A stretch of DNA of 24,000 nucleotides, taken from NCBI RefSeq assembly GCF_040812015.1, contig NZ_JBFNXJ010000004.1, positions 248,443 through 272,442 of the forward strand, in the 5' to 3' direction. This DNA is from Chitinivorax sp. PXF-14 (GTDB taxonomy: Bacteria > Pseudomonadota > Gammaproteobacteria > Burkholderiales > SCOH01). Below are positions 415 to 24,000 of the stretch, one piece after another. Both the position numbers and the translations under genes were made by a program. The notes under the pieces are model-generated. The model was not told the origin of the DNA. It did not search any database and saw only the letters and a list, made by a program, of their open reading frames with translations. Numbering within the stretch: the first letter of the stretch is position 1; the number at the start of each line of letters is the position of its first letter.

Positions 415-456
415 TGCATCTCATCCCCACCTTGCCCACCTGGCGGGAGCTGAGCC

Positions 457-1416
457 ATGAGTGACGATTCGCAACGGCCGATCATCGTCAAGAAGATCAA
501 GAAGGGCGGTGGCGGCCACCATGGCGGCGCCTGGAAGATCGCCTACGCCGACTTCGTGACGGCGATGATGGCGTTCTTCCTGCTGATGTGGCTGCTGGGC
601 TCCACCTCCAAGGGCGATCTCAAGGGCATTGCCGACTACTTCAAGAGCCCGCTCAAGGTCGCGATGCTGGGCGGCTCGGGCTCTGGCGATGCCACCAGCC
701 TGGTGCCTGGCGGTGGGCAGGATCTGAGCCGCACCTCGGGCCAGGTGAAGCGCGGCGACACGCTGACGCACAAGGCGCTGAACCAGAACGTCGACCGCGC
801 GCAGCGCGAGATGCAGATGCTGCAGGATCTCAAGCAGCGTGTCGAAAAGCTGGTCGACAAATCCGAGACGCTCAAGCAGTTCAAGAAACAATTGCTGATC
901 GACATGACGGCCGAGGGGCTGCGCATTCAGATTGTCGATGAACAGAACCGGCCGATGTTCGACTCGGGCTCGGCCGAGCTCAAGCCCTATACGCGGGTGA
1001 TCCTGCGCGAGATCGGCAGCCTGCTGAACGAGGTGCCCAACCGCATCAGCATTGCCGGCCATACCGACTCCACGCCGTTCTCGGGGGGCGAGCGCGGCTA
1101 CAGCAACTGGGAGTTGTCGGCAGACCGCGGCAATGCCTCGCGGCGCGAGCTGATCGCCGGGGGGATCGCCGAGAACAAGATGATTCGCGTCGTCGGCCTG
1201 GCCTCTGCCACACCGTTTGACTCGGCCAACCCGCAAAACCCGATCAACCGGCGCATCAGCATTACCGTGCTGAACCAGGAAACCGAGCAGAACATCATGC
1301 GCGAGGGGGGGCAGGCTGTGGTCGATGCCAAGGATCTCGTCGAAAGCGCCAAGGCGGACGGCAAGACTGCCGCATCTGCCTCCAAGGAAAAGCCGGCCAG
1401 TGAGGGCAAGCATTAA
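457..1416 (+). CDS. motB: Flagellar motor stator protein MotB (OmpA-like peptidoglycan-binding C-terminal domain)
   Basis: ATG 457 follows GGGAG at 445-449. The N-terminus GGAWKIAYADFVTAMMAFFLLMWLL is the MotB TM segment with the conserved Asp. OmpA-like motifs are present (GHTDSTPF, NWELSADRGNASRREL, NRRISITVL). Confidence 0.9.
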   Translation: MSDDSQRPIIVKKIKKGGGGHHGGAWKIAYADFVTAMMAFFLLMWLLGSTSKGDLKGIADYFKSPLKVAMLGGSGSGDATSLVPGGGQDLSRTSGQVKRGDTLTHKALNQNVDRAQREMQMLQDLKQRVEKLVDKSETLKQFKKQLLIDMTAEGLRIQIVDEQNRPMFDSGSAELKPYTRVILREIGSLLNEVPNRISIAGHTDSTPFSGGERGYSNWELSADRGNASRRELIAGGIAENKMIRVVGLASATPFDSANPQNPINRRISITVLNQETEQNIMREGGQAVVDAKDLVESAKADGKTAASASKEKPASEGKH

Positions 1417-1420
1417 GCCC

Positions 1421-2185
1421 TTGCCCGGCTGGGCTTCCTGGCCGGTGTCCGTACAGGCGCTGGCCATCCAGCTCCTGTCGGCGCCGCTGAGCATCGCGCT
1501 GTGCCTGGTACTGGCTGCCGAGGGCAATGCGCCTGGTATCTGGGTGCTGGCCTGGGGGCAGGGCGCCGTGGCCGGCGGGCTGAGCCTGTCGCTTGGCCTG
1601 CCCTGGTGGTGGTGGCTCATCCAACTTGGTTTCTGGCCGCTGCTGCTCGCCGGCCTACTTGGCGGATTCTCGCCCATGCTGGCGGCTGGTGTTTTTTTGC
1701 TGCTGCTGCTGGTCTACGGCGGGGGCGTGGCGAGCCGCGTGCCGCTGTTCCTGTCGAGCCGCAAGGATTGCACTGCCCTGTTGACGCTGCTGCCCCAACG
1801 CCCCGGCTTGCGCGTGCTTGATGCCGGAGCCGGCGTGGGGAGCGTGCTGGCGGCGCTGAGCCATGCCCGGCCGGATCTGGATTGCCACGGGGTCGAACGC
1901 GCCTGGCTTCCATGGCTGTGTGCCAGGCTGCGCCTGACGCTGGCCCGCTCCGGCGCGCGCGTGGCGCGGCAGAACCTGTATACGCTGAACTGGGGAGATT
2001 TCGACGTGGTTTACGCCTACTTGTCGCCGGCCCCGATGGCCGATGTCTGGCGCAAGGTCTGCGCGGAAATGCGTCCGGGCTCGATTTTCATCAGCAACAG
2101 CTTTGCCGTGCCTGGCGTGGAGCCGGATCAGGTCATCGACACCCATGACTGGCACGGCTCGCGGCTCCTGATCTGGTATCGCTGA
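1421..2185 (+). CDS. Membrane-anchored class I SAM-dependent methyltransferase (start uncertain: TTG 1421 or GTG 1445; the 1325 start would overlap motB)
   Basis: The N-terminal ~110 aa are hydrophobic (several predicted TM helices, PWWWWLIQLGFWPLLLAGLL). A SAM motif I follows (VLDAGAGVGSVLAAL) and a short Rossmann-type C-terminal domain. The stop codon lies 2 bp before the next gene. Confidence 0.6.
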   Translation: MPGWASWPVSVQALAIQLLSAPLSIALCLVLAAEGNAPGIWVLAWGQGAVAGGLSLSLGLPWWWWLIQLGFWPLLLAGLLGGFSPMLAAGVFLLLLLVYGGGVASRVPLFLSSRKDCTALLTLLPQRPGLRVLDAGAGVGSVLAALSHARPDLDCHGVERAWLPWLCARLRLTLARSGARVARQNLYTLNWGDFDVVYAYLSPAPMADVWRKVCAEMRPGSIFISNSFAVPGVEPDQVIDTHDWHGSRLLIWYR

Positions 2186-5717: not shown

Positions 5718-6488
5718 ATGGAAATCATCTCGTCGCGCCAGAATACGCAAATCAAACAGCTCGCCAGGCTGATGGAGTCCGCGCGCGAGCGTCGCAAGGC
5801 AGGGCAGGCTGTGCTCGAAGGCATTCACCTGGTCACGGCGTGGCATGAGGCGGCGCGCGGCTTCGAGCTGCTGCTGGTTGCCGAGTCCGCGCTGGCCCAC
5901 GGCGAGATTGCGCCGCTCTGGCGCGATGCCGAGGCCCAGCGCAGGCTGGTCGTCGGCGACAGCCTGTTTGCCCAGCTCGCCGAAATCAGCGCCCCGGTCG
6001 GCATACTCGCTATCGTTGGTATTCCCAAGCCTGCTTCGCACCGCCACGACTGCATCGTGCTGCTAGACGACGTGCAGGACCCGCTCAATGTCGGCGGCAT
6101 CCTGCGCACCGCGGCGGCTGCCGGGGTGGGGGCCGTCCACCTGTCTGCCGGATGCGCCGACGCTTGGTCGCCCAAGGTGCTCCGAGGGGGCATGGGCGGA
6201 CACCTGGCGCTCGACATCCACGAACACGCCGACTTGGCCCAGGTCGCGCGCGATTTCCACGGGCAGGTCGCGGTGACTACCCTGCAGCACAGCCAATCGC
6301 TGTACGACACCGATCTGCGCGGCGCGACGGCATTCGTGCTCGGCAACGAGGGCGCCGGCGTCTCCGATGGCCTGCTTGTGCTGGCGACGCTGCGATTGCG
6401 TATTCCCATGCCGGGTAAGGTCGAGTCGCTCAATGTTGCGGCGGCGGCGGCGGTGTGCCTGTTCGAGCGCGTGCGCCAGCAGCTGTAG
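5718..6488 (+). CDS. TrmH/SpoU-family RNA 2'-O-methyltransferase (RlmB-like group)
   Basis: Three SpoU motifs are present: DDVQDPLNVGGILRTAAAAG, FVLGNEGAGVS and LRIPMPGKVESLNVAAAAAVCLFE. ATG 5718 (MEIISSRQNTQIKQL...) is preferred over TTG 5661. Confidence 0.8.
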   Translation: MEIISSRQNTQIKQLARLMESARERRKAGQAVLEGIHLVTAWHEAARGFELLLVAESALAHGEIAPLWRDAEAQRRLVVGDSLFAQLAEISAPVGILAIVGIPKPASHRHDCIVLLDDVQDPLNVGGILRTAAAAGVGAVHLSAGCADAWSPKVLRGGMGGHLALDIHEHADLAQVARDFHGQVAVTTLQHSQSLYDTDLRGATAFVLGNEGAGVSDGLLVLATLRLRIPMPGKVESLNVAAAAAVCLFERVRQQL

Positions 6489-6711
6489 CGCCTGTTTACG
6501 GCCTGCCGCAAGCAGGGCAGGGCGATCAGCCGCGCATGAATCTTCCTTAAATGGGGCGTGCCGGCATGGCGGCTCGCCGATCTCACGGCAATCCGATATC
6601 CAGCCCGATGGGTCGCCGTGGGCACGGCGCTTCAATGCATCGGCCCGGATCAAGCCCGTCGATTCTGATAAAATTCCACCTCTTCCCTCCATCAACACCG
6701 TCGGGGCCGCA

Positions 6712-8232
6712 ATGACCGTGATTCGCCAGCAAGACTTCATCGATAGCATCTACGACAGCCTGCAGTTCATTTCCTACTACCATCCGATCGACTATATCCA
6801 GGCGCTCGGCGCGGCGTATGAACGCGAAGAATCCCCTGCCGCCAAGGATGCCATCGCTCAGATCCTGACCAATTCGCGTATGTGTGCCGAGGGGCATCGC
6901 CCGATCTGCCAGGACACCGGCATCGTCTGCGCCTTCGTCAAGGTCGGCATGGATGTGCGTTGGGAAGGCTGTACCATGTCCATTCAGGACATGGTCAATG
7001 AAGGCGTGCGCCGTGCCTACAACGATGCCGACAACAAGCTGCGTGCCTCGGTCCTCGCCGACCCGGCCGGCCTGCGCAAGAACACGCGCGACAACACGCC
7101 CGCCGTCGTACATTTCGACCTGGTGCCGGGTAACACCATCGAGGTGAAGATCGCGGCGAAGGGCGGCGGCTCGGAAAACAAGTCCAAGTTCGCGATGCTC
7201 AACCCGTCCGACAGCATCGTCGACTGGGTGCTCAAGACCGTACCGTTGATGGGCGCTGGCTGGTGCCCGCCGGGGATGCTTGGCATCGGCATCGGCGGCA
7301 CCGCGGAAAAGGCGATGATGCTGGCCAAGGAATCGTTGATGGAGCACATCGACATCCAGGAGCTGATCGCGCGCGGCCCGCAAAACCGTGTCGAGGAACT
7401 GCGCATCGAGCTGTTCGAGAAGGTCAACGCACTTGGCATCGGTGCGCAGGGCCTGGGCGGCCTGACGACGGTGCTCGACGTGAAGATTCTCGATTACCCG
7501 ACGCACGCTGCCAGCTTGCCGATCGCCATGATCCCGAACTGCGCCGCAACACGCCACGTTGAATTCTCGCTGGACGGCAGCGGCCCCGCCAAGCTCGATG
7601 CACCCAAGCTGGAAGACTGGCCGGCCGTGACCTGGTCGGCCTCGGCCTCGGCGCGCCGTGTCGATCTGAACCAGGTGACGGCAGAAGACGTCGCCAGCTG
7701 GAAGCCGGGCGAAACCCTGCTGCTGAACGGCAAGCTGCTGACGGGGCGCGACGCGGCCCACAAGCGCATGGTGGACATGCTCAACAAGGGCGAGAAGTTG
7801 CCGGTCGATTTCACCAACCGCTTTATCTATTATGTCGGCCCCGTCGATCCGGTACGCGACGAAGTGGTTGGCCCTGCTGGCCCGACGACGGCCACGCGCA
7901 TGGACAAGTTCACACGCCAGATGCTGGAGCAGACCGGCCTGCTGGGCATGGTGGGCAAGGCTGAGCGCGGCCCCGTTGCGATCGATGCGATCAAGGACAG
8001 CAAGGCGGTATACCTGATGGCCGTTGGTGGCGCGGCCTACCTGGTGTCGAAGGCGATCAAGGCGGCCAAGGTCGTCGCCTTTGAAGACCTGGGCATGGAG
8101 GCCATTTACGAGTTCGACATCGTCGACATGCCGGTGACGGTTGCCGTCGATAGCCAGGGTACGTCGGTCCACAAGACCGGCCCAGCTGAGTGGCAGGCCC
8201 GGATCGGCAAGATTCCCGTCGCCACAAACTGA
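6712..8232 (+). CDS. Class I (Fe-S dependent) fumarate hydratase, single-polypeptide ~506 aa form
   Basis: The sequence MTVIRQQDFIDSIYDSLQFISYYHP...CQDTGI...KGGGSENKSK...CPPG..GIGIGGTAE (alpha-type region) is followed by ...LLLNGKLLTGRDAAHKRM...IYYVGP...GPTTATRMD (beta-type region). The 115-codon upstream extension in the ORF track (from 6367) is Arg/Cys/Ser-rich nonsense and is rejected. Confidence 0.9.
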   Translation: MTVIRQQDFIDSIYDSLQFISYYHPIDYIQALGAAYEREESPAAKDAIAQILTNSRMCAEGHRPICQDTGIVCAFVKVGMDVRWEGCTMSIQDMVNEGVRRAYNDADNKLRASVLADPAGLRKNTRDNTPAVVHFDLVPGNTIEVKIAAKGGGSENKSKFAMLNPSDSIVDWVLKTVPLMGAGWCPPGMLGIGIGGTAEKAMMLAKESLMEHIDIQELIARGPQNRVEELRIELFEKVNALGIGAQGLGGLTTVLDVKILDYPTHAASLPIAMIPNCAATRHVEFSLDGSGPAKLDAPKLEDWPAVTWSASASARRVDLNQVTAEDVASWKPGETLLLNGKLLTGRDAAHKRMVDMLNKGEKLPVDFTNRFIYYVGPVDPVRDEVVGPAGPTTATRMDKFTRQMLEQTGLLGMVGKAERGPVAIDAIKDSKAVYLMAVGGAAYLVSKAIKAAKVVAFEDLGMEAIYEFDIVDMPVTVAVDSQGTSVHKTGPAEWQARIGKIPVATN

Positions 8233-8250
8233 TTTTCTTCCTTGTACCAG

Positions 8251-8281
8251 CAAAGGGGCCCATATGGGCCCCTTTGTTTTT
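8251..8281 (+). terminator. Rho-independent terminator of the fumarase gene
   Basis: CAAAGGGGCCCA-ta-TGGGCCCCTTTG is a perfect palindromic stem, followed by TTTTT. Confidence 0.85.
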
Positions 8282-8540
8282 GGGCGGATACACGCGAATC
8301 ATCGAAGTGCGGCTGTTCCAGCTGTATGCAAATGACAGGAAAACGTCACAGGGCGAGGGATGGGCGAAGTAAAACTTAGTAGGCCTCGGAACGTGACGAG
8401 GGCTGGGTAGGCGAAAAATTGGGCCGGGATTTTGATCTTGTGTTTGGTGATTTCTATTTTTATTACAAAGACTTATCGTGTTTCGAATACGCTGTCGTCA
8501 TTCCTCGATATGAAAAGTTCATTTTTTTTATGCATTCTTG

Positions 8541-8569
8541 TTGACACCTGAGAGTTAAAGCTCTAATCT
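8541..8569 (+). promoter_or_regulatory. Strong candidate sigma70 promoter of the secreted-protein gene (TTGACA-17 nt-TAATCT) with an A/T-rich UP-like tract upstream
   Basis: TTGACA at 8541-8546, a 17-nt spacer, TAATCT at 8564-8569. It is preceded by AAAAGTTCATTTTTTTTATGCATTC (8513-8538). It predicts a ~125-nt 5' UTR ending in the SD AGGAG (8689-8693). Confidence 0.5.
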
Positions 8570-8700
8570 AGAGTCCATGCACTAAACGTAACGGCGCGAA
8601 ACAAATCAAAAGCACTGCGCATGTGTCTGGTGCATGGTTTAGAGGGGTATCAGTTTTTCCAACTGTCATTAACTAAGTCTGATAAACGAGGAGTAAAACT

Positions 8701-9405
8701 ATGAAGAAGTCTCTGATTGCTGCTGCACTGGCCCTGGCATCCGTTCCTGCTTTCGCTCAAATGACCAACGTCGACGACGAAGTTCTGGGCACCCAAACCG
8801 GTCAAGAAGGTATCAGCATCGCACTGACCATCAAGGCTCACATCGATGACGTGATCTGGACTGACGATGGCAACTCCCTGCACTTCCAAGACATCGCGAT
8901 CGGTAGCGGCAGCACCATCGCTCGTCAAGTTGGCTTCGCAGTTGGTGGCAACACTCAGTACCTGAGCACTGGCACTGACTACTCCAACCCGGTTATCTTC
9001 CTGTCGCCGATCCGTATCGACGTTAAGAAGCTGGACCAAATCAACTTCACTATCGTTGATCAAGGCATGGGCACTGCACCTGCTGGCCTCGTAAACGTTA
9101 ACGGCACTGCTACCAACGTTCCGAACGGCAACACCCTGGCTCCGGGCTACGTTGTTAACTACGCTGACTACCTGAAGGCTTACGGCGCTAACGACGTTCT
9201 CGAAGGTGGTGCTGGCTCCAACGGCGCTCCTGGCTCGATCACTGGCACCAACTACGCTTCCGCAATCGTAATCGAAATGCCGCGTACTGTTGCTAGCTTC
9301 CGCGTCGGCGCGATCAAGGTAGGTAACGGTGCTTCGATGGGCTCCTTGGAAATGAAGGGTATGGACTTCTACGGTACCAAGGTTGCAATCTGGGGTCACC
9401 AGTAA
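8701..9405 (+). CDS. Secreted 234-aa protein with strong expression signals, Cys-free and G/N/T/V/I-rich (predicted beta-rich); family not recognised with certainty; putative cargo of the island
   Basis: AGGAG SD 7 nt upstream of ATG. Sec signal peptide MKKSLIAAALALASVPAFA|Q. Codon usage differs sharply from the neighbours (my count: Val GTT 14/20, Ala GCT 17/27, Gln CAA 7/9, Arg CGT 3/4). The gene has its own promoter and its own strong terminator. Confidence 0.8.
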   Translation: MKKSLIAAALALASVPAFAQMTNVDDEVLGTQTGQEGISIALTIKAHIDDVIWTDDGNSLHFQDIAIGSGSTIARQVGFAVGGNTQYLSTGTDYSNPVIFLSPIRIDVKKLDQINFTIVDQGMGTAPAGLVNVNGTATNVPNGNTLAPGYVVNYADYLKAYGANDVLEGGAGSNGAPGSITGTNYASAIVIEMPRTVASFRVGAIKVGNGASMGSLEMKGMDFYGTKVAIWGHQ

Positions 9406-9434
9406 TCAGTCTGCTGACAACGTCAGCCTGATTG

Positions 9435-9475
9435 AAAATCCACCACGGTTTTCCGTGGTGGATTTTTTATTTTTT
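9435..9475 (+). terminator. Strong rho-independent terminator/attenuator after the secreted-protein gene
   Basis: AAAATCCACCACGG-tttt-CCGTGGTGGATTTT forms a 14-bp perfect stem, followed by TTATTTTTT. Confidence 0.85.
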
Positions 9476-9705
9476 GCAGCTTGGCTAATTTATTTATTGA
9501 TTTACCGAAGATGACCACATCTTTTTGACTGAAAATCTCGCCGATTTGTCTGGTGTGAACGTGGTTTTGTTGTTTGTTTTTCTAGTATGCGATTGATATT
9601 GCTGGATATTTTGTCTGACAATAGTTTAAATGCATAAAAATTATTGAAAAAAAACCAAAACCCAGTAATATCCGATATGCGCGATGCATTGATTTGGAGT
9701 GGGGG

Positions 9706-10455
9706 ATGTTTCTTTCTATCGTAATGGCCTTGATGGCGATGACCAATGTCGGCCTGACTGACATCAAGGACAGCCCCGACGGCGTTTACCCTGTACAAAC
9801 CATTCCGGAATTCAGGGGGGGCGAACAGATCGCCATCCGTCCCTTGTCCGACCTCAAATACAGCGGCCTGGTGCATCAGGCATTCGACTACAGCTGTGGC
9901 TCGGCTGCGCTGACAACCGTTCTTAATTATTTCCTCAGCGAAAGCCTGCAAGAGTCGGAAGTCATGGAAGGCATGCTCAAGTTCGGCGAGAAGGACAAGA
10001 TCGTGCAGCGTCGTGGTTTCTCGCTGCTCGACATGAAACGCTATGTCGCATCGCTAGGCTACAAGAGCGCGGGCTTCAAGGCTGAATTGAGCGATCTGAT
10101 CGACCTGCGTCAACCGGGCATCGTTGGTATTCAGCATGCAGGTTTCAAGCATTTCGTGGTGTTCCGCGAGATCCGCGACGGCCATATCTATTTGGCAGAT
10201 CCTGCCCAGGGCAAGATCAGTTTTACGACATCCGAGTTTCTCAAGTTCTGGGATGGTAACGTGCTGTTCCTCATCTATCCCAAGGACGGCGTCGATATCA
10301 ACAATCGTCTGGAACTGACTGACAACGATTTGCGCGTGATGGACGAAGATCGCATCCGGCAATCGGTGTTGGCTACGCTACCGGCTTTTGGCCTGCCACT
10401 GGATCGTAAGGTCGATAAAGCCGCAGGCGGCACGGTTTATTACAAGCATAAATAG
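9706..10455 (+). CDS. Stand-alone C39-family cysteine peptidase (no ABC transporter fusion), N-terminal hydrophobic segment, probably periplasmic; FapD-like in architecture
   Basis: ATG 9706 follows GGAGTGGGGG. The motif Q58-x5-C64 (HQAFDYSCGSAALTTVLNYF) and H149...D165 (KHFVVFREIRDGHIYLADP) give a complete Gln/Cys/His/Asp set with a His-to-Asp spacing of 16, as in bacteriocin-processing C39 domains. The ORF ends after 249 aa, 14 bp before the next gene. Confidence 0.8.
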   Translation: MFLSIVMALMAMTNVGLTDIKDSPDGVYPVQTIPEFRGGEQIAIRPLSDLKYSGLVHQAFDYSCGSAALTTVLNYFLSESLQESEVMEGMLKFGEKDKIVQRRGFSLLDMKRYVASLGYKSAGFKAELSDLIDLRQPGIVGIQHAGFKHFVVFREIRDGHIYLADPAQGKISFTTSEFLKFWDGNVLFLIYPKDGVDINNRLELTDNDLRVMDEDRIRQSVLATLPAFGLPLDRKVDKAAGGTVYYKHK

Positions 10456-10469
10456 AATTCGATTACGGG

Positions 10470-11879
10470 GTGCTTCAATTGAACAAGCAAATCGTCGCGC
10501 TGGCCTTGGCGCTTATGGGTGGAACCGCAGTCGCAGCCGATGCGGATGCCGAGCCGAAACGCACACCGCTTGGTGTGAACCAGATCCAGGAGCCGGGGGA
10601 GTCCAAAAAACTGCAACCGGTAACGGACCTGCCGCAGGACAGCCGCCCGGCTGCCACGGCAGCTGAGGCACCCGCTGCTCCGGCGCAGGCCAGCCAGAAA
10701 AACGCCAAGAAGGGCAAAGGCGCCAAGACCGCAACGGCAAGCGCGGAAGCCGTAGCTGCACCCGCCGCGGCACAAAAGGCAGCGGAACCCAAGGCTGCCA
10801 CGGCGCAAGCGCCAGCCGAACCTAAACCAGTAGCAGAGACGAAGCCCGCTGTCGCGTCGACACCGGCCCCAGCTGCCGCACCAGCCAGCGCACCGCCGGC
10901 CAAGACCGCTGCGGCGCCTGCTGCCGGCGGCAAGGATACAACCGATGCGGCTCGCCAGGCACTGGCGAAGCAGGAAGGCGACAAGGACAACAAGAAGCTG
11001 GCTGAAGACGTGCTGACCTCGCAGGAAAAGAACTACACCCTGCTCAAGAAGGGCTCGTTCGATTTCAGCTATGACTTCAACTACAGCTATATCAGCGCGG
11101 ATCGCCTCGATTACGCCGTCGCCAGCAACAGCCAGAACCAGTTCAATATCTCCAAGTTCGGGCTGGAGCGTGACGCGACGCATACGGTGACCAACACGAT
11201 TACCGGCGACTATGGCCTGCGCGACAACCTGACCGTGGGTGTGTCAGTACCGCTGGTGTACAAGTACGACTCGTCCAACAATCTGAAGCGCTGGGTGACC
11301 GGTATCGGTGATCTCTCGCTCAACACGCGCTGGCAGCCTATCGAGGTGTCGCGCCGCATGCCGTCGCTGACCATCAACGGCTCGGTGCGTGCGCCGACCG
11401 GCATCAGCCCCTACGAGATCATCGCCGGCAAGGAATTGTCGACCGGTAGCGGCTATTGGGGCGGCACCGTCAGCGGCAACCTGTCCAAGGTCATCGACCC
11501 GGTCGTGCTGTTCGGCTCCCTGGGCTACTCGTACAACCTCAAGAAGACTGGCCTGAACCAGGTGCGCGGCAACGAAGGCCGCCGTATCTCCGCCATCGAG
11601 CCGGGCAGCGGCTTCAACGTGGGCGCCGGCTTCGGCTACGCCTTGTCGTACGATATCGCGCTGAACCTGTCGACCCAGGTGTCGTGGTCCAAGCAATCGC
11701 AGCTGATCTTCCATGATGGCACCTCGGTCATGCTCGACATGGAAACCTCGGGCTCGATGAACTTTGGCCTGACCTGGCGCCTCGACCCCAAATTCACGCT
11801 CGGCTTTACTGCCGCCATCGGCTTGACCAACGAGTCGCCTGACTTCTCGTTCGGCGTGAACATGCCGCTCAACTTCTAA
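10470..11879 (+). CDS. Outer-membrane beta-barrel protein (MetA-pathway/'transporter'-type barrel) preceded by a long Ala/Pro/Lys-rich linker and a charged helix; FapF-like architecture
   Basis: Signal peptide (LNKQIVALALALMGGTAVAA). Residues ~58-153 are almost only A/P/K/T/E/Q/S. A charged helix follows (DTTDAARQALAKQEGDKDNKKLAEDVLTSQEK). The ~275-aa C-terminal region has alternating beta-strand patterns, a TGIGDLSLNTRWQP motif and a terminal ...NMPLNF (C-terminal Phe, an OMP signature). The start could be GTG 10470 or TTG 10479. Confidence 0.7.
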   Translation: MLQLNKQIVALALALMGGTAVAADADAEPKRTPLGVNQIQEPGESKKLQPVTDLPQDSRPAATAAEAPAAPAQASQKNAKKGKGAKTATASAEAVAAPAAAQKAAEPKAATAQAPAEPKPVAETKPAVASTPAPAAAPASAPPAKTAAAPAAGGKDTTDAARQALAKQEGDKDNKKLAEDVLTSQEKNYTLLKKGSFDFSYDFNYSYISADRLDYAVASNSQNQFNISKFGLERDATHTVTNTITGDYGLRDNLTVGVSVPLVYKYDSSNNLKRWVTGIGDLSLNTRWQPIEVSRRMPSLTINGSVRAPTGISPYEIIAGKELSTGSGYWGGTVSGNLSKVIDPVVLFGSLGYSYNLKKTGLNQVRGNEGRRISAIEPGSGFNVGAGFGYALSYDIALNLSTQVSWSKQSQLIFHDGTSVMLDMETSGSMNFGLTWRLDPKFTLGFTAAIGLTNESPDFSFGVNMPLNF

Positions 11880-11896
11880 GCCGGGAGTTGAGTACG

Positions 11897-13513
11897 ATGG
11901 CGAAGTCAACATACAGCCTGCGCGGCAAGTGGCGCGAGGCGCTCGTAGCCTCTGTCCTGGCGGCGCTGAGCGCTCCGTCGCTGGCGGCGGTCGGGGAAAA
12001 CATCGGTGTCAGCCTGCGTGCCATGTCGCTGGGCAATGCCGTGACGGCCGACCCGGGCGGGATCGAGGCGGTACACTACAACCCGGCGGGGCTTACCCAC
12101 CTGACCGGCAAGCGGCATGATCTGACCTTGATGGCGGCACGTGTGCGCACGTTTGCCGAGTTCAATGCGCCGGAGGATTACAAGGGCATCTTCGGCTTCA
12201 AGGAAGACCCGGTCATCGGCCAGCGCAGCACCAGTGCCGATCACGCGTTCTACGTCCCGGGCATCGGCCTGGTGAAGCCCAAGGTGCCGGTCATCGTGGC
12301 GCCGATGAGCGGCTTCTCGTACAACGAGCCCGATTCTCGCTTCACCTTCGCGGACATGCTGTTTGCGCCGCAGCTGGTGGCCTACGACCGCTCGCGCCAA
12401 GGGGATGACGATCCGACCCGCTTCGGCGGTCGCACCATGGTGCTGCAGCGTTTCACCTATTTCGCGCCATCGATGGGCTACAAGGTCAGCGATACCTTGT
12501 CGCTGGGCGTGACGGCATCACTGTCGCACCATGCGCTGGCGCTCAATACCGATTTCCGGGCGCCGAACCAGCTGCTCGCGATGGTCGGGCAATTGCAGAA
12601 AGCGCTGTGCCCCGAGGGGGGCAACCCGATCGATACGGTATTGTTCGGCCTGTGTAGCAAGGGGCGGATGAACCCGTTCAACAAGATCGCCAACCTGGAG
12701 TTCCAGGTTTCCGTTCCTTCCGACCCGACTCTCTATCTGGGCTTTCTGTGGGAACCGAACGACTGGTTCGCGCTCGGCGGCGTGTACCAGAGCGAGAGCA
12801 AGATGCGCATGACGGGCAAGTACAAGTTCGAGTACGACCCCAATATCCGCGCCTTCTACGATGGCGTCAGCCATTCGGCTCTGGGCCCGATCATTCTGGC
12901 GGCGCTGGCGCAGCCGAGCTCGGTGCCGGAGAAGGAAGAGGGCAACGTGACCTTGACGCTGCCGTATCCGAAGCACATCCAGGTCGGTACCAAGTTCAAG
13001 TTCGGCCGTATCCAGTTGAACGGCGACGTCAGCTGGACCAACTGGAAGGCGTGGGAGAACTTCGTCTTCGACTTCGACCAGGAGCTGTCTGCGCTGCAGA
13101 TGGCCCGCCTGTTCGGTTACCCCGATGCGACCAAGCTGGTGATGCCGCGCGGTTACAAGAACACCTGGAGCGGCGGTATCGGCTTGCAGGTCGATGTGAC
13201 CAGCAAGCTGCGCACGCGCATGGGGGTGGAGTTCCGCAAGAGCTCGGTGCGGCCGGACCGCATCGATACCGTGGCACCGCTGTCGGATGACCGCTTGTAC
13301 GGGATCGGCTTCGGCTATTCGATCGACAAGTTCACCGATATCGACGCGACGATCGCCTTCCTGCATACGCGTTACACGGCGCAGGCCAATTCGAGTTGCA
13401 ACCTGAACTGCGACAACCTGCTGAACGTGGTGTACAACCCGTATGCGGGCCTGGATGTGACCACTGGCCTCAAGGTCGACGTGGGCGGCATCACCATCCG
13501 CAAGCGTTTCTAA
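11897..13513 (+). CDS. Outer-membrane transport protein of the OMPP1/FadL/TodX family, unusually long (538 aa)
   Basis: GGGAG at 11883-11887, 9 nt before ATG 11897. Signal peptide ...LAALSAPSLA|AVGEN. There is an N-terminal hatch-like segment with the family motif (SLGNAVTADPGGIEAVHYNPAGLTHL). Amphipathic beta strands run throughout and the protein ends ...GGITIRKRF. Two Cys pairs are present (ALCPEGG...FGLCSKG and SSCNLNCDN). Confidence 0.75.
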   Translation: MAKSTYSLRGKWREALVASVLAALSAPSLAAVGENIGVSLRAMSLGNAVTADPGGIEAVHYNPAGLTHLTGKRHDLTLMAARVRTFAEFNAPEDYKGIFGFKEDPVIGQRSTSADHAFYVPGIGLVKPKVPVIVAPMSGFSYNEPDSRFTFADMLFAPQLVAYDRSRQGDDDPTRFGGRTMVLQRFTYFAPSMGYKVSDTLSLGVTASLSHHALALNTDFRAPNQLLAMVGQLQKALCPEGGNPIDTVLFGLCSKGRMNPFNKIANLEFQVSVPSDPTLYLGFLWEPNDWFALGGVYQSESKMRMTGKYKFEYDPNIRAFYDGVSHSALGPIILAALAQPSSVPEKEEGNVTLTLPYPKHIQVGTKFKFGRIQLNGDVSWTNWKAWENFVFDFDQELSALQMARLFGYPDATKLVMPRGYKNTWSGGIGLQVDVTSKLRTRMGVEFRKSSVRPDRIDTVAPLSDDRLYGIGFGYSIDKFTDIDATIAFLHTRYTAQANSSCNLNCDNLLNVVYNPYAGLDVTTGLKVDVGGITIRKRF

Positions 13514-13533
13514 GCCGCCCTGGCGGCAGCGCA

Positions 13534-13567
13534 AACAAGAAAGCCGGCAATTGCCGGCTTTCTTGTT
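13534..13567. terminator. Bidirectional terminator between the convergent FadL-like and emrB genes
   Basis: Perfect 17+17 bp inverted repeat AACAAGAAAGCCGGCAA|TTGCCGGCTTTCTTGTT. It is flanked by A-rich and T-rich runs on either side, so it can act on both strands. Confidence 0.8.
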
Positions 13568-13584
13568 GCTTGCACCTGTTTGCT

Positions 13585-15168
13585 TCAGTGCAAATCCACG
13601 CTCTGCGAGTAGCGGTTGTGACGCATCAGCGCCAGCAGCGGCAGGGCGCAGGCCAGGATGACGCCGAACCACAGGAACAGCTTGGCAAACGCCAGCATCG
13701 TTACCTGTTTCTCCACCTGCATATTCATCACCGCATAGGCCTTGATCTGCGCCATGGCATCGGGAATGCCGCGCCCGATCAGTATCTGCTTGAGCTGGGC
13801 CAGCCTGCCCATGGCCGCGGGATCGTTGCCGGCCAGGTGTTCGACCAGGTGCAGGCGCTCGCTCTGCTGCAAGTGGCCCAGGCTGGTGGCCGCCGTGGCG
13901 ATGCCCACCGAGCCGCCGAGCATGCGCGTCAGGTTGTAGAGGCCGCTTGCGCCGGGAATCTCGATCGCCTCGACATTGGACATGGCGAGGTTGTTCAGCG
14001 GCACGAACACCATCCCCAGCCCCAGCCCGCGTAATACCAGCGGCCAGAAGAAGTCGCCGGCACCGCTTTCGGTGGTGAAGTGGTTGTGCTGCCACATCGA
14101 GTAACAGAACAGCACCGTGCCCAGCACGATGAGCACCTTCGGCGATACGCCGCGCGCCACCAGCTTGCTGGTGGTGGCCAGCGCGATGGCCGTGGCGATG
14201 GCCGAGGGCAGGATGAACATGCCGGTCTGGAATGCGTTGAATCCCATCAGGGACTGCGCGTAAACCGGGAACATGAAGATCGTGCAGTACAGCGCGGCCC
14301 CGGTCAGGAACGCATACAGCAGGCCGGCGCTGAACTGGCCATCGCGCATGATGCGCAGGTTCACGATCGGGTGCTCGGTCTCCAGCTCGTGGATCACGAA
14401 GGTGTAAAGCGACACGAAGCTGACGATCACCAGCGTGATGATTTCGCCGGACTGGAACCAGTCTTGCTTCTCGCCGCGCTCGAGCATGGTCTGCAGCGTG
14501 CCGATGCCGACCGCGAGCAGGATCAGCCCGATATAGTCGATGCGCTCGGCCTTTTGCTGCAGGCCCGAGTCCGGCACGTAGATCAGCGTCAAGAGCAGCG
14601 CGACGATGCCGAATGGCAGGTTGATGTAGAAGATCCACGGCCAGGAATAGGCATCGGTGAGCCAGCCGCCGATCGTCGGGCCGAGCGCCGGGCCCGCCAT
14701 GATGCCCATGCCGAAGATGGCCATCGCCGTGCCCATCTCCTTCTGCGGGAAGACCTCGAAGATGGTCGCCTGCGCGGTGGCCAGCAGGCCGCCGCCGCCG
14801 ATGCCCTGAATGATGCGCCACATCACCAGCGACTCGAGCGTGGTGGCGGCGCCGCAGGCCATCGATGCGATCGTGAACAGGAGGATGGACAGCGCGAAGT
14901 AGTTGCGCCGCCCGAACTGGCTCGACAGCCAGCCCGAGATCGGCAGCACGATCACGTTGGCGACGACATAACCGGTCGACACCCAGGCGATCTCGTCGAG
15001 CGTCGCGCCGAGCGTGCCCATCATGTGGGGCACGGCGACGTTGACGATGCTGGTGTCGAGCAGTTCGAGCACCGAGGCAAGCGTCACCGTCATCGCGATG
15101 ATGAAGCGGTTGGCGTGGATGGCCGCGGGCGAGGTCGAGCGCGACAGCCCTGGCAGCATGGGGCGCAT
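13585..15168 (-). CDS. emrB: DHA2-family (EmrB/QacA) MFS multidrug efflux permease, 14-TM type
   Basis: 527 aa. The N-terminus is ...IIAMTVTLASVLELLDTSIVNVAVPHMMGTLGA...WVSTGYVVANVIVLPISGWLSSQFGRRN, typical of EmrB. It follows the adaptor gene with a 9-bp gap. Confidence 0.85.
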   Translation of the reverse strand: MRPMLPGLSRSTSPAAIHANRFIIAMTVTLASVLELLDTSIVNVAVPHMMGTLGATLDEIAWVSTGYVVANVIVLPISGWLSSQFGRRNYFALSILLFTIASMACGAATTLESLVMWRIIQGIGGGGLLATAQATIFEVFPQKEMGTAMAIFGMGIMAGPALGPTIGGWLTDAYSWPWIFYINLPFGIVALLLTLIYVPDSGLQQKAERIDYIGLILLAVGIGTLQTMLERGEKQDWFQSGEIITLVIVSFVSLYTFVIHELETEHPIVNLRIMRDGQFSAGLLYAFLTGAALYCTIFMFPVYAQSLMGFNAFQTGMFILPSAIATAIALATTSKLVARGVSPKVLIVLGTVLFCYSMWQHNHFTTESGAGDFFWPLVLRGLGLGMVFVPLNNLAMSNVEAIEIPGASGLYNLTRMLGGSVGIATAATSLGHLQQSERLHLVEHLAGNDPAAMGRLAQLKQILIGRGIPDAMAQIKAYAVMNMQVEKQVTMLAFAKLFLWFGVILACALPLLALMRHNRYSQSVDLH

Positions 15169-15177
15169 GGGGCTTCC

Positions 15178-16257
15178 TTAGCTGGCTTTGATGGTGGCGA
15201 ACACGCTCATGCCCGGGCGCAGCGGATGTTGCGCATCGTCACGCTTGGCCAAGCGGATTTTCACCGGGATGCGCTGCACGACCTTGGTGAAATTGCCCGT
15301 GGCGTTGTCCGGTGGCAGCAGCGTGAACTTGGCGCCGGTGGCGGCGCTGATCGATTCCACCTTGCCGTTGAAGGTCACGCCGGGGTAGGCATCGACTTCG
15401 ATTTCCGCCTCGGCGCCATTCCTGACCTTGCCGACATCGGTTTCCTTGACGTTGGCGACCACCCAGATGTCGTCGTCGGCAACGAGGCTCATCAGTGTCT
15501 GGCCCGGCTGCACCAGTTGGCCGACTTCGACGTTTTTCTTGCTGACGAGGCCGTTGCTCGGTGCCCTGAGGCCGGTATCGGCGAGCTGGATCGCCGCGAG
15601 GTCGCGCACCGCGCGTGCCGCGTCGACCTTGGAGCGTGCCGAGCGCAAGGCGGCCGAGTACACGGTCACCTGTTCGCCGGCCGCGCTGGCCGAGTCACGC
15701 GAGGTCTTGAGTTGCGCTTCGGCCGTTCGCACGGTGGTTTCCGCCGCGTCGAGCTGTTGCTGCGACGCCATCGCCTGGGCCGCGAGCGACTTGATGCGCT
15801 CGAGATCGTTCCTGGCCTTCTGCAGATTGGCTTCCGCCTGCTTGATGGTGGCGCTGGCCGCCGAGGCGTTGGCCTGGGCCCAGTTGATTTGCGCCACGGC
15901 CTGGCCGACATCGTTGCCCTGCTTGTTGCCGGTATTCGAGAGCGCAATGGCGAGCTCGGCCTCGGCCTGCAGCAGCTTGGCCTTGTAGTCGCGATCGTCG
16001 ATCTTGACCAGCTCGGAATCCGTCCTGACCAGCTCATTGTCCGAGACATTGACGGCGCGCACATAGCCCGCCACGCGCGCGGCGATCGGCACGATGCGGC
16101 CTTCGACCTGCGCGTTGTCGGTGCTCACATAGTGATGGCCGTACCACCAGCGGTAGCCGAGGCCGCCGGCAATGCCGATCGCCATGATCATCAGGACCAG
16201 GCGGGCCTTGCCCTGTTTTGCCGGTGCAGCGTTGCCGGCCGGGGTTTCTGTCGTCAT
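15178..16257 (-). CDS. emrA: HlyD-family efflux periplasmic adaptor (EmrA-like)
   Basis: It has an N-terminal TM anchor (RLVLMIMAIGIAGGLGYRWWY), a long Ala/Gln-rich coiled-coil hairpin, and a beta-barrel C-terminus (RPGMSVFATIKAS). The gene sits between the TetR and EmrB genes. Confidence 0.85.
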   Translation of the reverse strand: MTTETPAGNAAPAKQGKARLVLMIMAIGIAGGLGYRWWYGHHYVSTDNAQVEGRIVPIAARVAGYVRAVNVSDNELVRTDSELVKIDDRDYKAKLLQAEAELAIALSNTGNKQGNDVGQAVAQINWAQANASAASATIKQAEANLQKARNDLERIKSLAAQAMASQQQLDAAETTVRTAEAQLKTSRDSASAAGEQVTVYSAALRSARSKVDAARAVRDLAAIQLADTGLRAPSNGLVSKKNVEVGQLVQPGQTLMSLVADDDIWVVANVKETDVGKVRNGAEAEIEVDAYPGVTFNGKVESISAATGAKFTLLPPDNATGNFTKVVQRIPVKIRLAKRDDAQHPLRPGMSVFATIKAS

Positions 16258-16910
16258 GCTTGGTTCTCCGTGTTATCAGGTGCGGCCTGAATGCCTTTCA
16301 GCACGACACTCAGGTGAAAGCGGGTGAATTCGCCCAGGTCCATGGCCTCCTGGCCATAGGGGCTGAAGGTGTGGTGCCAGATGGTCTGCAGGATCACCGG
16401 CGAAATGATTTCCTTGATGGCGAAGCCGAGATGCATCGGGCGGAACTCGCCGGCCTGGATGCCGCGCTCGAGCACTTCGCCGAATACCTTGCGCACCCGC
16501 GTCATCACTTCATTCAGATAGAAGTTGGCCAGGTCGGGGAAATTGCCCGCCTCGGCGACCACGAGCTTGGAGATGCCGTTGGCGGGTGACTCGACGATCA
16601 GCTCGACCCATTTGTTCATCAGATGGGTCAGCATCTCGGTGGCCGACAGCTTGGAATCGGCGACGAACTCTTCCGCCATCTGGATCGACGGTATCAGCGT
16701 CTCGCGAATGGCTGCCTTGAACAGCTCTTCCTTGCTCGAGAAATACAGGTAAAGCGTGCCCTTGGTGACGCCGGCCGCGCGGGCGACCTCGTCGAGTTTG
16801 GTGGCGGCGAAGCCCTTCTGGATGAACAGGGCCAGCGCGGCACTGGTGATTTCCGAGGGGCGCGCATCCTTACGGCGTTGCCAGCGTGGGCTGCTACATG
16901 GAGTGTTCAT
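16254..16910 (-). CDS. TetR/AcrR-family transcriptional repressor, first gene of the efflux operon
   Basis: N-terminal HTH: RPSEITSAALALFIQKGFAATKLDEVARAAGVTKGTLYLYFSSKEELF. Its stop overlaps the emrA start by 4 bp (ATGA). Confidence 0.85.
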   Translation of the reverse strand: MNTPCSSPRWQRRKDARPSEITSAALALFIQKGFAATKLDEVARAAGVTKGTLYLYFSSKEELFKAAIRETLIPSIQMAEEFVADSKLSATEMLTHLMNKWVELIVESPANGISKLVVAEAGNFPDLANFYLNEVMTRVRKVFGEVLERGIQAGEFRPMHLGFAIKEIISPVILQTIWHHTFSPYGQEAMDLGEFTRFHLSVVLKGIQAAPDNTENQA

Positions 16911-16966: not shown

Positions 16967-17241
16967 CGAACTTTTCCAGTCTTTAGAGGACGTTATGCGT
17001 ATTGCTGGATGCCGTTACGGCGCAGCCTAGGCTTGGCGACGCGGCTGGGTTGCCGCCATGGGCATCTGGCGAGGAGGTGTGTGGGCGCATATATCCGCAA
17101 TTTGCCACCGAGGCGGCGGGTGGTGAGGCGGCGATGGAGGGGCCGGCTTGGCAGGCAGAACGCCTATCCAGACAGGGCCGCCGGTAATGGCGAGTGGCGC
17201 CGCCCCCGGCGCGGGCCGCCGAGTGTGACGGCCCACACTTA

Positions 17242-17973
17242 TTACTTGCTGCTGCGGCCTTGCAGTGTCTTGGTGAGCACGCCGCGCAGGATGTCGATTT
17301 CCTCGTTTTCGAGCCGCGCGCGCTTGTAGAGCCGGCGCAGCCGCGGCATCAGGCGCTTGGGGTTGGCCGGGTTGAGAAAGCCGATTTCGATCAGCGTGGC
17401 TTCGAGGTGTTGCAGCATGCCTTCGACCTGATCCTGCGTGGCCAGCGTGGGGGCCTCGTTCTGGTCATCGAACTCGCGCAGGCCCGCGGCCATGCGCAGC
17501 TCGTAGCACACCAGCTGCACCGCGGCGGCCAGGTTGAGCGAGCTGTAGACCGGGTTGGCCGGCACGTGCACGAGCAGATTGCACTGCATCACCTCGTCAT
17601 TGGAGAGGCCGAAGGTCTCGTTGCCGAAGACGAAGGCGATTTCATTGCTGCCCGCCAGGCCGACCATATGTTCCGCCGCTTCGCGCAGGTTTTCCGATGG
17701 CAAGGTCAGGTCGCGGCGGCGTGCCGACAGCGCGGCAACAAAGCCGACGCCGCTCAGCGCCTCACCGAGCGAGGTGCACGCGGTGGCGTTGCGCAGCACG
17801 TCGACGGCTCCGCTGGCCAGCGCGTCGGCATGGTCGCTGGGAAAGGCCTGCGGGCTGACGAGATAGAGCCGCGACAGGCCCATGACCTTCATCGCCCGGG
17901 CGGCCGAGCCGATGTTGCCCGGATGGCTCGGGCGCGAGAGAACGATGCGGATGCGGTCGAGTACGTTGTCCAT
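17242..17973 (-). CDS. trmJ: tRNA (cytidine/uridine-2'-O)-methyltransferase TrmJ (SpoU family)
   Basis: SpoU motifs are present: RIVLSRPSHPGNIGSAARAMKVMG, FVFGNETFGLS and VHVPANPVYSSLNLAAAVQLVCYEL. There is also a TrmJ-type C-terminal extension. The gene is divergent from suhB, as it is in E. coli. Confidence 0.8.
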   Translation of the reverse strand: MDNVLDRIRIVLSRPSHPGNIGSAARAMKVMGLSRLYLVSPQAFPSDHADALASGAVDVLRNATACTSLGEALSGVGFVAALSARRRDLTLPSENLREAAEHMVGLAGSNEIAFVFGNETFGLSNDEVMQCNLLVHVPANPVYSSLNLAAAVQLVCYELRMAAGLREFDDQNEAPTLATQDQVEGMLQHLEATLIEIGFLNPANPKRLMPRLRRLYKRARLENEEIDILRGVLTKTLQGRSSK

Positions 17974-18212
17974 GATGGGCTCGAAAAAGCAAAGCCGGCC
18001 ATTCTAGCGCAAACCCGAGTTTATTTATCCTCGAGAAAACAATACAATACGCGCCCATTGTCGCAGGCATCGGCTATTCTGAGGGCTGAGCCTGCTCGTT
18101 CCTTTTCATCGTGAGTGATGTCTGAGCCCGTCGGGCGGACGATACAGCGGCCCTGCCGGGTGCGTAGTCGTTCGTTTTGCGTGGCAGTCATCCTTCGCAC
18201 TGGAGTCACTAC

Positions 18213-19010
18213 ATGCACCCGATGCTGAATATTGCGGTCAAGGCCGCCCGCCGTGCCGGATCGATCATCAACCGCGCTTCCAACAACCTCGACGTGCTGC
18301 GTGTGGAGCGCAAGGGCCAGAGCGATTTCGTCTCCGAAGTCGACCGTGCGGCCGAGCAGGCGATCGTCGAAGTGCTGCTCGAAGCCTATCCGAACCACGC
18401 CATCCTGGCGGAAGAGGGCGGCGCGACAGGTGACTCCGAATTCCAGTGGATCATCGATCCGCTCGATGGCACGACCAATTTCCTGCACGGTTTCCCGCAA
18501 TATGCGATCTCGATCGCGCTGCAGCACAACGGCGTGCTGACCCAGGGCGTGATCTTCGACCCGGTACACAACGACCTGTTCACCGCCACGCGTGGCTCCG
18601 GCGCCTTCCTGAACGACCGCCGCATCCGCGTCGGCAAGCGCATCCAGCTGTCGGACGCGCTGATCGGCACCGGCTTCCCGTATTCCGACTTTACCCACCT
18701 CGACAGCTACCTCGCGATGTTCAAGGACCTGCTGCAGAAGACCGCCGGCCTGCGCCGCCCCGGTGCCGCCGCGCTGGACCTGGCCTATGTTGCCTGCGGG
18801 CGTTTCGATGGCTTCTGGGAGCTCGGGCTGAAGCCCTGGGATGTCGCCGCCGGCGCCTTGCTGGTGCAGGAGGCGGGTGGCCTGGTGAGCGATCTCGGCG
18901 GTAACGAGGGTTACCTCGAAAGCGGCAACCTGATCGCCGGCTCGCCCAAGATCTTCGGCCAGTTGCTGCAAGCCTTGCAGCCCCACCTGAACGACGCGCT
19001 CACGCGCTGA
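18213..19010 (+). CDS. suhB: Inositol monophosphatase family protein SuhB
   Basis: The N-terminus [16 protein letters not shown] is nearly the same as the E. coli SuhB N-terminus as I remember it. IMPase motifs are present ([25 protein letters not shown]). GGAG lies 7 nt upstream of ATG 18213. Confidence 0.9.
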
Positions 19011-23389: not shown

Positions 23390-23507
23390 GCGCTATCCTC
23401 GATAGAGCGGTACGCCGCGCGGTATTGGCCTGCCCTGGGCTTGGGCCGTCGCAGGCGTGCAGGGCGGGGCTTGCCTATCTCCATACTAGATCGTGACACG
23501 AGGGCCG

Positions 23508-24000
23508 CATGGCATCGGTTAGCTTGCGCAAGGTGTGCAAACAATTCGGCGGCAGCCAGATCGTGCGCGACGTCGATCTCGACATCGAGGATGGCGAGTT
23601 CGTCGTCATGGTGGGGCCGTCGGGCTGCGGCAAATCGACGCTGCTCAACTGCATCGCCGGGCTGGAGGCGGTCAGCAGCGGCGAGATCTGGATCGGCGGC
23701 CGGCTGGTGAACCAGGTGCCGCCCAAGGACCGCGACATCGCCATGGTGTTCCAGAGCTACGCGCTGTACCCGAACATGAGCGTGCGCAAGAACATCACCT
23801 TCGGCATGGATATGCGCAACATCCCGCGAGCCGAGCAGGACACCATCCTCGCGCGCGTCGCCGACATGCTGCAGATCTCGCACCTGCTCGACCACAAGCC
23901 GGCCCAGCTGTCCGGCGGGCAGCGCCAGCGCGTGGCCATGGGGCGGGCCATGGTGCGCGACCCGGCGCTGTTCCTGTTCGACGAGCCGCTCTCGAATCTC
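23508..24000 (+). CDS. ABC transporter ATP-binding protein, MalK/UgpC-like (3' end outside window)
   Basis: This is not in the ORF track because it runs off the window. From ATG 23508 it reads [46 protein letters not shown] (Walker A)...[14 protein letters not shown]...[14 protein letters not shown] (signature)...[11 protein letters not shown] (Walker B). Confidence 0.9.

Follow-up and report, generated by a model that had tools for sequence, protein, structure and literature searches.

A FilB/FapD-type stand-alone C39 peptidase in a minimal filABCD-like operon of Chitinivorax sp. PXF-14, with a DUF6160 protein as its candidate substrate

Introduction

What could a C39 cysteine peptidase process when it is encoded on its own, next to genes for outer-membrane proteins? 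This question is raised by an open reading frame (ORF) of Chitinivorax sp. PXF-14 located at positions 9706 to 10455 of a 24,000-nucleotide stretch of DNA (contig NZ_JBFNXJ010000004.1, positions 248,443 to 272,442, forward strand), the whole of which is referred to here as the window. An earlier note, written from the letters of the window alone, had described the ORF product as a stand-alone and apparently periplasmic C39 peptidase. A precedent exists in the functional-amyloid Fap system of Pseudomonas, whose C39 peptidase FapD is exported by Sec and has been placed in the periplasm by experiment; it remains functional when carrying the signal sequence of OmpA, secretion is lost when its catalytic Cys, which is needed for secretion of FapC, is changed to Ala, and its target "remains unclear" (PMC5557850, Rouse et al. 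2017).

Here we report that the ORF product, hereafter the FilB-like protein, belongs to the FilB/FapD group as a distant relative, and that its gene lies within a minimal filABCD-like operon. The argument starts from what is directly observed, namely the C39 identity of the protein, its intact catalytic residues, the synteny, its odd N-terminus and a leader-like motif in the product of the upstream gene. It leads to a reading that we consider reasonably likely, in which FilB would be the active, exported C39 processing enzyme of an operon for the secretion of a surface fibre, its location, its FilA substrate, the scissile bond and the fibre product all being predicted. That C39 peptidases can stand alone in the periplasm has been known since the work on FapD in 2017, and the FilA-type neighbour found here provides a concrete candidate for the missing substrate.

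A stand-alone C39 peptidase with intact catalytic residues

The ORF begins with MFLSIVMALMAMTNVG and has the extent and translation given in the earlier note (249 amino acids, aa); an independent public gene call on the same contig (GCA_041905435.1, JAYRLD010000013.1) also assigns 249 aa to it. The purine-rich stretch GGAGTGGGGG stands directly 5' of the ATG at 9706, with GGAG/GGGGG just upstream. A single in-frame start would give a longer product, a TTG at 9694 that would add 4 aa, and an in-frame stop occupies 9622-9624. At its other end the ORF closes cleanly, as had been described, 14 bp before a gene for an outer-membrane barrel protein that starts with GTG at 10470.

Alignment to the Pfam hidden Markov model (HMM) Peptidase_C39 (PF03412; MEROPS C39), a check that had been proposed together with the first description, gave 71.6 bits (E 7.5e-20) over residues 55-189, the curated gathering score being 22 bits, and confirmed the family assignment. 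The catalytic C64 and H149, together with Q58 as the oxyanion Gln and D165 as the orienting Asp, are spaced Q-x5-C and H-x15-D and are invariant in an alignment of 20 homologues of 44-98% identity, and a profile search of PDB sequences aligned H149 and D165 to the HFVV...ADP block of PCAT1. The complete catalytic tetrad with canonical spacing that had been pointed out is therefore present, and the domain appears non-degenerate as far as intact and invariant catalytic residues can indicate.

An AlphaFold2 model of the protein has a confident core at residues 62-205 (predicted local distance difference test, pLDDT, of 80-95 by block), which is predicted to adopt the papain-like fold of the ComA/PCAT1 peptidase domain. 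In the PDB, Foldseek matched the model best to the PCAT1, ComA and LahT150 peptidase domains (E 3e-7 to 1e-5, probability 1.00, target TM score 0.69-0.75), and the profile search of PDB sequences agrees with them. Conservation within the FilB clade is highest in the invariant block RRGFSLLDM (residues 102-110), in which G104 and L108 align to A55 and I59 of the leader-binding groove and helix of PCAT1. The fold and the arrangement and spacing of Gln, Cys, His and Asp are shared with the ABC (ATP-binding cassette) transporters that bear a peptidase domain (PCAT) and the ABC transporter maturation and secretion (AMS) proteins, such as PCAT1, ComA, LahT150 and CvaB, and the residues at the positions of their leader groove are conserved.

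Unlike these exporters, the FilB-like protein is not fused to a transmembrane domain (TMD) and a nucleotide-binding domain (NBD). Neither was found after the C39 domain; the protein is complete at 249 aa, outer-membrane proteins are encoded downstream, and full-length exporter models match the protein over only their N-terminal ~130 positions. The earlier statement that transporter domains are lacking was upheld in this respect, the fusion to a six-helix TMD and an NBD seen in PCAT/AMS exporters being absent. We conclude that the ORF product is almost certainly a C39 peptidase, and that it is stand-alone and, by its residues, catalytically intact, with predicted activity.

A four-gene operon resembling filABCD

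The peptidase gene is one of four consecutive genes on the same strand whose best NCBIfam matches are FilA, FilB, FilC and FilD, in the order filA-filB-filC-filD, and which, judged from their sequences, form a minimal filABCD-like operon. The likeness to FapD that had been suspected also emerged from the recommended comparison, FapD being the second-best curated match of the peptidase (126.9 bits; NF058616, an equivalog model with a cut-off of 330) and FilB the best (240.2 bits over residues 40-240; NF050078, an exception model with a cut-off of 475). The FilC-like protein consists of a signal peptide, an Ala/Pro-rich linker of ~100 aa, a helix and a barrel, and is related to the amyloid secretion channel FapF, whose NCBIfam model has a cut-off of 700 bits. 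The FilD-like protein matches Pfam Toluene_X (E 2.2e-45) and, below the cut-off, NCBIfam FilD (463.6 bits). Since all four proteins score well under the curated cut-offs, they are distant relatives and not orthologues of the named proteins. That the FilB-like protein is a distant member of the known FilB/FapD group is in itself unsurprising to a specialist. The earlier description was right that the C39 gene stands alone, but it missed both the membership of this gene in a named, filABCD-like system and the candidate substrate encoded upstream. No FilE, FilF or second FilA-like gene was found in the window with NCBIfam profiles and among the neighbouring genes.

The FilB-type family is large: one search retrieved 2189 proteins at E <= 1e-5, and a second retrieved 4479 representatives of clusters formed at 50% identity (E <= 1e-3). 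Among named relatives of the peptidase, that of Chitinivorax sp. B is the closest, at 76% identity. We compared 80 genome loci from Beta- and Gammaproteobacteria, among them Ideonella, Massilia, Pseudomonas, Alcanivorax and Marinobacter. The order FilB-FilC-FilD is kept in about 77 of the 80, that is, in essentially every locus with enough sequence, and filC follows filB in about 78.

The curated FilB model derives from the fil cluster of Acinetobacter baumannii (A1S_0690-0695), a putative type III pilus that is abundant or induced in cells of pellicles and biofilms and has been explored for vaccination; expression of the fil genes is altered in mutants, and FilF is a vaccine antigen. With filABCDEF of A. 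baumannii, the locus in the window shares the order of DUF6160 subunit, C39 peptidase, FapF-like and FadL-like protein, as well as a leader-like motif in FilA, and FilB is the best curated match of the peptidase (240 bits) including its C-terminal extension. It differs in that this score is far under 475, so that the FilB-like protein is not an orthologue by NCBI's rule, in that filE and filF are not present, and in its host, a Chitinivorax-like organism, Chitinivorax being a betaproteobacterium.

The Pseudomonas Fap system resembles the locus in having a stand-alone C39 peptidase, exported in the case of FapD and predicted to be so here, beside a gene for a FapF-type channel. Unlike the fapABCDEF context, the locus in the window is without the amyloid genes FapA, FapB, FapC and FapE, its upstream cargo is DUF6160/FilA-like, and it has an additional FadL-family protein. 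The peptidases themselves differ in that the C-terminal extension is not common to FapD and in that the N-terminus of the FilB-like protein is without the n-region of a canonical signal peptide.

The uncharged N-terminus and the predicted location of the FilB-like protein

The N-terminal hydrophobic targeting segment is present and conserved in all 81 members of the clade. K and R are absent from the first 15-21 residues of every one of these proteins, and Glu stands at position 3 in 33 of them; small residues are frequent at positions 16-19, and the -3 position is mostly N, Q, T or G. The caveat about a missing positively charged n-region that accompanied the first description is therefore real, and it concerns a conserved trait of the clade, not a start-codon artefact. 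The hydrophobic Met is the first residue of the longest possible ORF in 66 of the 80 loci, and the other 14 have an internal Met at the conserved position. The nearest 150 cluster representatives include 81 with a classical signal peptide (K/R plus a hydrophobic stretch) and 37 with the charge-less type.

A miscalled start or a frameshift hiding a normal signal peptide was also considered, and was ruled out by the stop at 9622, by the absence of an upstream ATG or GTG, with TTG 9694 as the only other start, and by the 66 loci whose longest ORF starts at the hydrophobic Met. An exception regarding the start is the homologue from Chitinivorax sp. B, which is annotated as 273 aa.

By the charge-difference (positive-inside) rule, a net-negative C-terminal flank favours an N-in/C-out orientation. 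This orientation is favoured here, because the 15 residues after the hydrophobic segment have a net charge of -4 to 0 in 81 of 81 proteins. Each clade member contains exactly one Cys, the nucleophile, which fits a thiol enzyme in the oxidising periplasm. The operon partners are all Sec-exported or outer-membrane proteins, and this, together with the periplasmic FapD, argues for a C39 domain that faces the periplasm. The probable periplasmic location that had been suggested is thus supported by the flank charge, the single Cys, the signal peptides of relatives and the FapD precedent, and we consider that the C39 domain very probably faces the periplasm. The N-terminal segment may be either cleaved or retained as an inner-membrane anchor. 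With the FilB-like protein predicted to be periplasmic, its substrate would arrive by Sec and not through an ABC exporter.

The DUF6160 protein as candidate substrate

The gene upstream of filB encodes a FilA-like DUF6160 protein, a putative secreted fibre subunit and a candidate substrate of FilB. Its signal peptide comprises residues 1-19, with A17-F-A19 preceding Q20, so that the junction reads PAFA followed by QMTNVDDEVLGTQTGQEGISI. DUF6160 proteins are very divergent, and only 3 matches to the FilA-like protein were found in 5.8e9 proteins. With an HMM iterated from the FilA N-terminus across the 80 loci, DUF6160-type ORFs were recovered in 59 of them, often as 2-6 paralogues each, and 99 unique N-termini from these 59 loci were aligned.

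The resulting logo (n = 99, profile positions) reads A15(83)-x-A17(93), an optional residue, M/L19-x-x-L/M/I22-x-D24(94)-x-x-L27(87), and continues S/A-x-V30(84)-T/S-G32(97)-Q/R/G/A33-D34-G35-I/V-S-I/F. As AxA is the standard site of signal peptidase I, the conserved motif starts at the mature N-terminus. When G32 is set at -2, V30 falls at -4, L27 at -7, L22 at -12 and M19 at -15; the corresponding residues of FilA in the window are M21 (-15), V24 (-12), D26 (-10), L29 (-7), Q32 (-4), G34 (-2) and Q35 (-1). Structures of LahT150 and of PCAT1 with a leader show residues -10/-11 to -4 as a two-turn helix, with Val at -4 and Leu at -7 and -12 docking in grooves of the peptidase, and a narrow C39 active-site cleft that admits Gly-Gly, Gly-Ala or Gly-Ser (PMC6363468; PMC6959990). 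In sequence terms, the spacing of the DUF6160 motif is that of a classical double-glycine leader.

A true GG or GA occupies the predicted cleavage position in 10 of the 99 N-termini. All paralogues in the multi-subunit loci retain the motif, the remainder of the protein being divergent, and it is also found at profile positions 20-46 of Acinetobacter FilA. Like the substrates of PCAT/AMS exporters, the proposed FilA substrate has hydrophobic residues at -4, -7 and -12 and Gly at -2; unlike them, it is a protein of 150-450 aa and not a small peptide, and Gln or Arg would in most cases occupy P1. On the strength of these features we slightly favour the FilA propeptide as the substrate of FilB.

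In nine of the betaproteobacterial loci, 4-6 DUF6160 paralogues of 150-320 aa, each with the leader-like motif, stand in tandem and resemble major and minor fibre subunits. A C-terminal block of FilA-type proteins (9328-9402 in the window), which ends in GTKVxIW(A/G)H and, with the N-terminal motif, surrounds a hypervariable middle, has an invariant His as its last or second-to-last residue (H233 of 234 here) and may be a secretion or polymerisation signal.

Proposed maturation pathway and alternative readings

We propose the following pathway. Sec would carry FilA across the inner membrane, and cleavage by signal peptidase I after A17-F-A19 would leave a new N-terminus that consists of a 15-16-residue amphipathic propeptide with double-glycine-leader geometry. 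FilB, held at the inner membrane or released from it by its uncharged N-terminal hydrophobic segment, would dock the propeptide helix in the groove formed by the conserved RRGFSLLDM helix and would cleave it at the invariant Gly or beside it (G34-Q35 here), so that ~16 residues would be removed in the periplasm before secretion. The processed subunit would then leave through the FapF-like FilC and assemble at the surface; the FadL-like FilD would be the second component in the outer membrane. That DUF6160 subunits are matured twice, by signal peptidase I and then by a periplasmic C39 peptidase that removes a minimal leader starting exactly at the signal-peptidase site, is a proposal that we make tentatively and regard as plausible. 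If true, a class of substrates would for the first time be defined for C39 peptidases of the periplasm, and the leader code of bacteriocins would prove to be in use a second time, on the opposite side of the membrane. The four-gene, single-subunit version of the system is a convenient minimal one, in which a Sec-delivered, double-glycine-like propeptide may gate secretion through a FapF-type channel.

Several points weigh against this proposal. The FilB-like protein is without a canonical Sec signal peptide composed of a positive n-region and AxA. The residue after the invariant Gly, at P1, is mostly Q or R in place of the small G, A or S, and FilA of the window has Q at -4 where V or I would be expected. 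The leader spacing is also expected of any amphipathic helix followed by Gly, and the scissile bond could equally fall after G32 or after G35 of the profile. Bacteriocin-leader HMMs gave no match to the FilA leader at E <= 10, at which only FilA matched. A DUF6160 gene within 8 kb is absent in 21 of the 80 loci, mainly those of Marinobacter, and the idea that such a gene adjoins every filB was accordingly dropped. A structure of FilA could not be drawn upon, as the model built from 3 sequences had a pLDDT of 39 and was not used. Finally, the literature on Fil-type systems consists only of expression and vaccine studies. On the function of DUF6160 or FilB it yielded nothing mechanistic, the mention of DUF6160 being incidental. 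In loci of the Marinobacter type (for example L018, 11422-12501), filB-filC-filD are followed by a gene for a 359-aa putative lipoprotein, with no DUF6160 gene within 8 kb.

The peptidase might instead be active in the periplasm on the machinery itself, for example on the periplasmic linker of FilC, in order to open or close the channel, and the DUF6160 motif would then be a retained targeting or polymerisation element. Rouse et al. found no target of FapD and proposed FapE or the FapF linker (PMC5557850), and the long Ala/Pro-rich linker of this FilC ends in PAAGG just before the conserved helix. However, the long linker and the GG are missing from many FilC homologues, the signal peptide of Marinobacter FilC running straight into the conserved helix, so there is no conserved cleavage site, whereas 97 of 99 DUF6160 proteins keep the leader-like motif. 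We regard cleavage of the machinery as unlikely, although it retains an appreciable probability. The linker of the window's FilC lies at 10630-10970 (residues ~55-165), after the signal peptide and ahead of the conserved helix and barrel, is of low complexity and is absent in Marinobacter FilC; FilC length also varies, between 469 and 454 aa, among near-identical environmental contigs.

Two further alternatives question the location or the activity of the enzyme. If the hydrophobic N-terminus were a reverse (N-out) anchor or did not serve as an export signal, the C39 domain would lie in the cytoplasm, like classical C39 domains, and its substrate might be a double-glycine peptide destined for an unlinked exporter; the lack of K or R before the hydrophobic segment in any of the 81 proteins and the Glu at position 3 in 33 of them would agree with this. 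The C-terminal flank, however, is net negative or neutral in 81 of 81, which favours N-in/C-out, more distant relatives have canonical signal peptides, the operon partners are all exported, FapD acts in the periplasm (PMC5557850), and neither a linked ABC exporter nor a small GG-peptide gene was found in the window or in the related loci, all of which makes a cytoplasmic role quite improbable. Still less probable, to the point of being remote, is a non-catalytic, C39-like chaperone or receptor for the subunit, as in HlyB. Such C39-like binding domains exist, and PDB 3zua and HlyB are among the fold matches, but these domains are without the catalytic Cys, whereas the FilB clade keeps Q, C, H and D unchanged, and the Cys-to-Ala mutant of FapD is non-functional (PMC5557850).

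The C-terminal extension of the FilB-like protein

The C-terminal extension had been thought to belong to no obvious family. This did not hold, as the extension is conserved across the FilB-type clade and is covered by the NCBIfam FilB model, which aligns through residue 240, whereas the FapD profile match stops at residue 203. It carries the motif L202-x-L204-[TKS]-[ED]-x-[DE]-L209-[RG]-x-[VIL]212-D213-[DE] and ends in a conserved tail of the aromatic-aliphatic-R-R-K type (residues 244-249, 10435-10452).

In a predicted helix at residues 202-214 (10309-10347), L204, E206, L209 and V212 copy the -12/-10/-7/-4 spacing of the FilA motif; where that motif has Thr-Gly, the extension has Asp-Asp/Glu and no Gly. 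One may speculate that the extension is a non-cleavable in-cis leader mimic or pseudo-substrate, which, if true, could hold the enzyme closed until the substrate or FilC is met. AlphaFold2 confidence in the extension is below 50, and for this reason the idea stays speculation. Autoprocessing at the C-terminal AAGG was considered separately and ruled out, because the two Gly are not conserved (positions 241 and 242 are S/E/T/G and G/R/L).

Features and surroundings of the operon

The coordinates of the features discussed are collected in Table 1.

Table 1 Features of the filABCD-like operon, in positions of the window
Feature	Position	Strand	Description
FilA-like DUF6160 gene	8701-9405	+	234 aa; Pfam DUF6160 E 1.1e-16; NCBIfam FilA E 6.9e-11, below cut-off
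Predicted double-glycine-like propeptide of FilA	8758-8805	+	residues 20-35, QMTNVDDEVLGTQTGQ; periplasmic; cleavage predicted
Terminator-like intrinsic hairpin	9434-9467	+	15-bp stem, then T-run; 29 bp after filA; strong
Three overlapping sigma-70-like promoter matches	9593-9671	+	weak; in AT-rich filA-filB spacer
filB-like C39 cysteine peptidase gene	9706-10455	+	ATG 9706, TAG 10453-10455; 249 aa; FilB/FapD-type, stand-alone
Uncharged hydrophobic N-terminal segment	9706-9756	+	residues 1-17; predicted export signal or signal-anchor without positive n-region
C39 domain	9868-10272	+	residues 55-189
Catalytic codon CAG, Q58	9877-9879	+	
Catalytic codon TGT, C64	9895-9897	+	
Catalytic codon CAT, H149	10150-10152	+	
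Catalytic codon GAT, D165	10198-10200	+	
C-terminal extension	10285-10452	+	residues 194-249; clade-conserved
FilC-like outer-membrane protein gene	10470-11879	+	469 aa; FilC 265 bits, FapF 90.7 bits, both below cut-off
FilD-like OmpP1/FadL/TodX-family outer-membrane protein gene	11888-13513	+	541 aa; 538 aa by public call

The filA-filB spacer is ~300 bp long and AT-rich, with ~240 bp remaining after the hairpin. Promoter matches over the scanned region 8200-13700 total 3, against a mean of 2.6 in shuffled sequence, which is about chance. A hairpin combined with a weakly promoter-like spacer would let the transcript of the subunit outnumber those of the machinery, and the layout suggests that subunit and machinery are differentially expressed. 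A riboswitch or other known RNA was also sought in the spacer and upstream of filA; no Rfam family reached its gathering score, and the weak hits correspond to the terminator hairpin.

The operon ends after filD, because a convergent emrB/emrA/tetR-like cluster follows. This cluster, at 13585-16910 on the minus strand, consists of genes for an emrB-like major facilitator superfamily protein, an emrA-like membrane-fusion protein and a TetR-family regulator, and constitutes an efflux operon. Long ORFs without an NCBIfam match lie at 421-1677 (minus strand), 17194-18986 and 23386-23895 (minus strand); the sequence is GC-rich, and some of them may be shadow ORFs. Upstream of filA, at 6367-8232, a 621-aa ORF encodes a class I fumarate hydratase with a spurious Arg/Cys-rich N-terminal extension, the public call for this gene being 506 aa.

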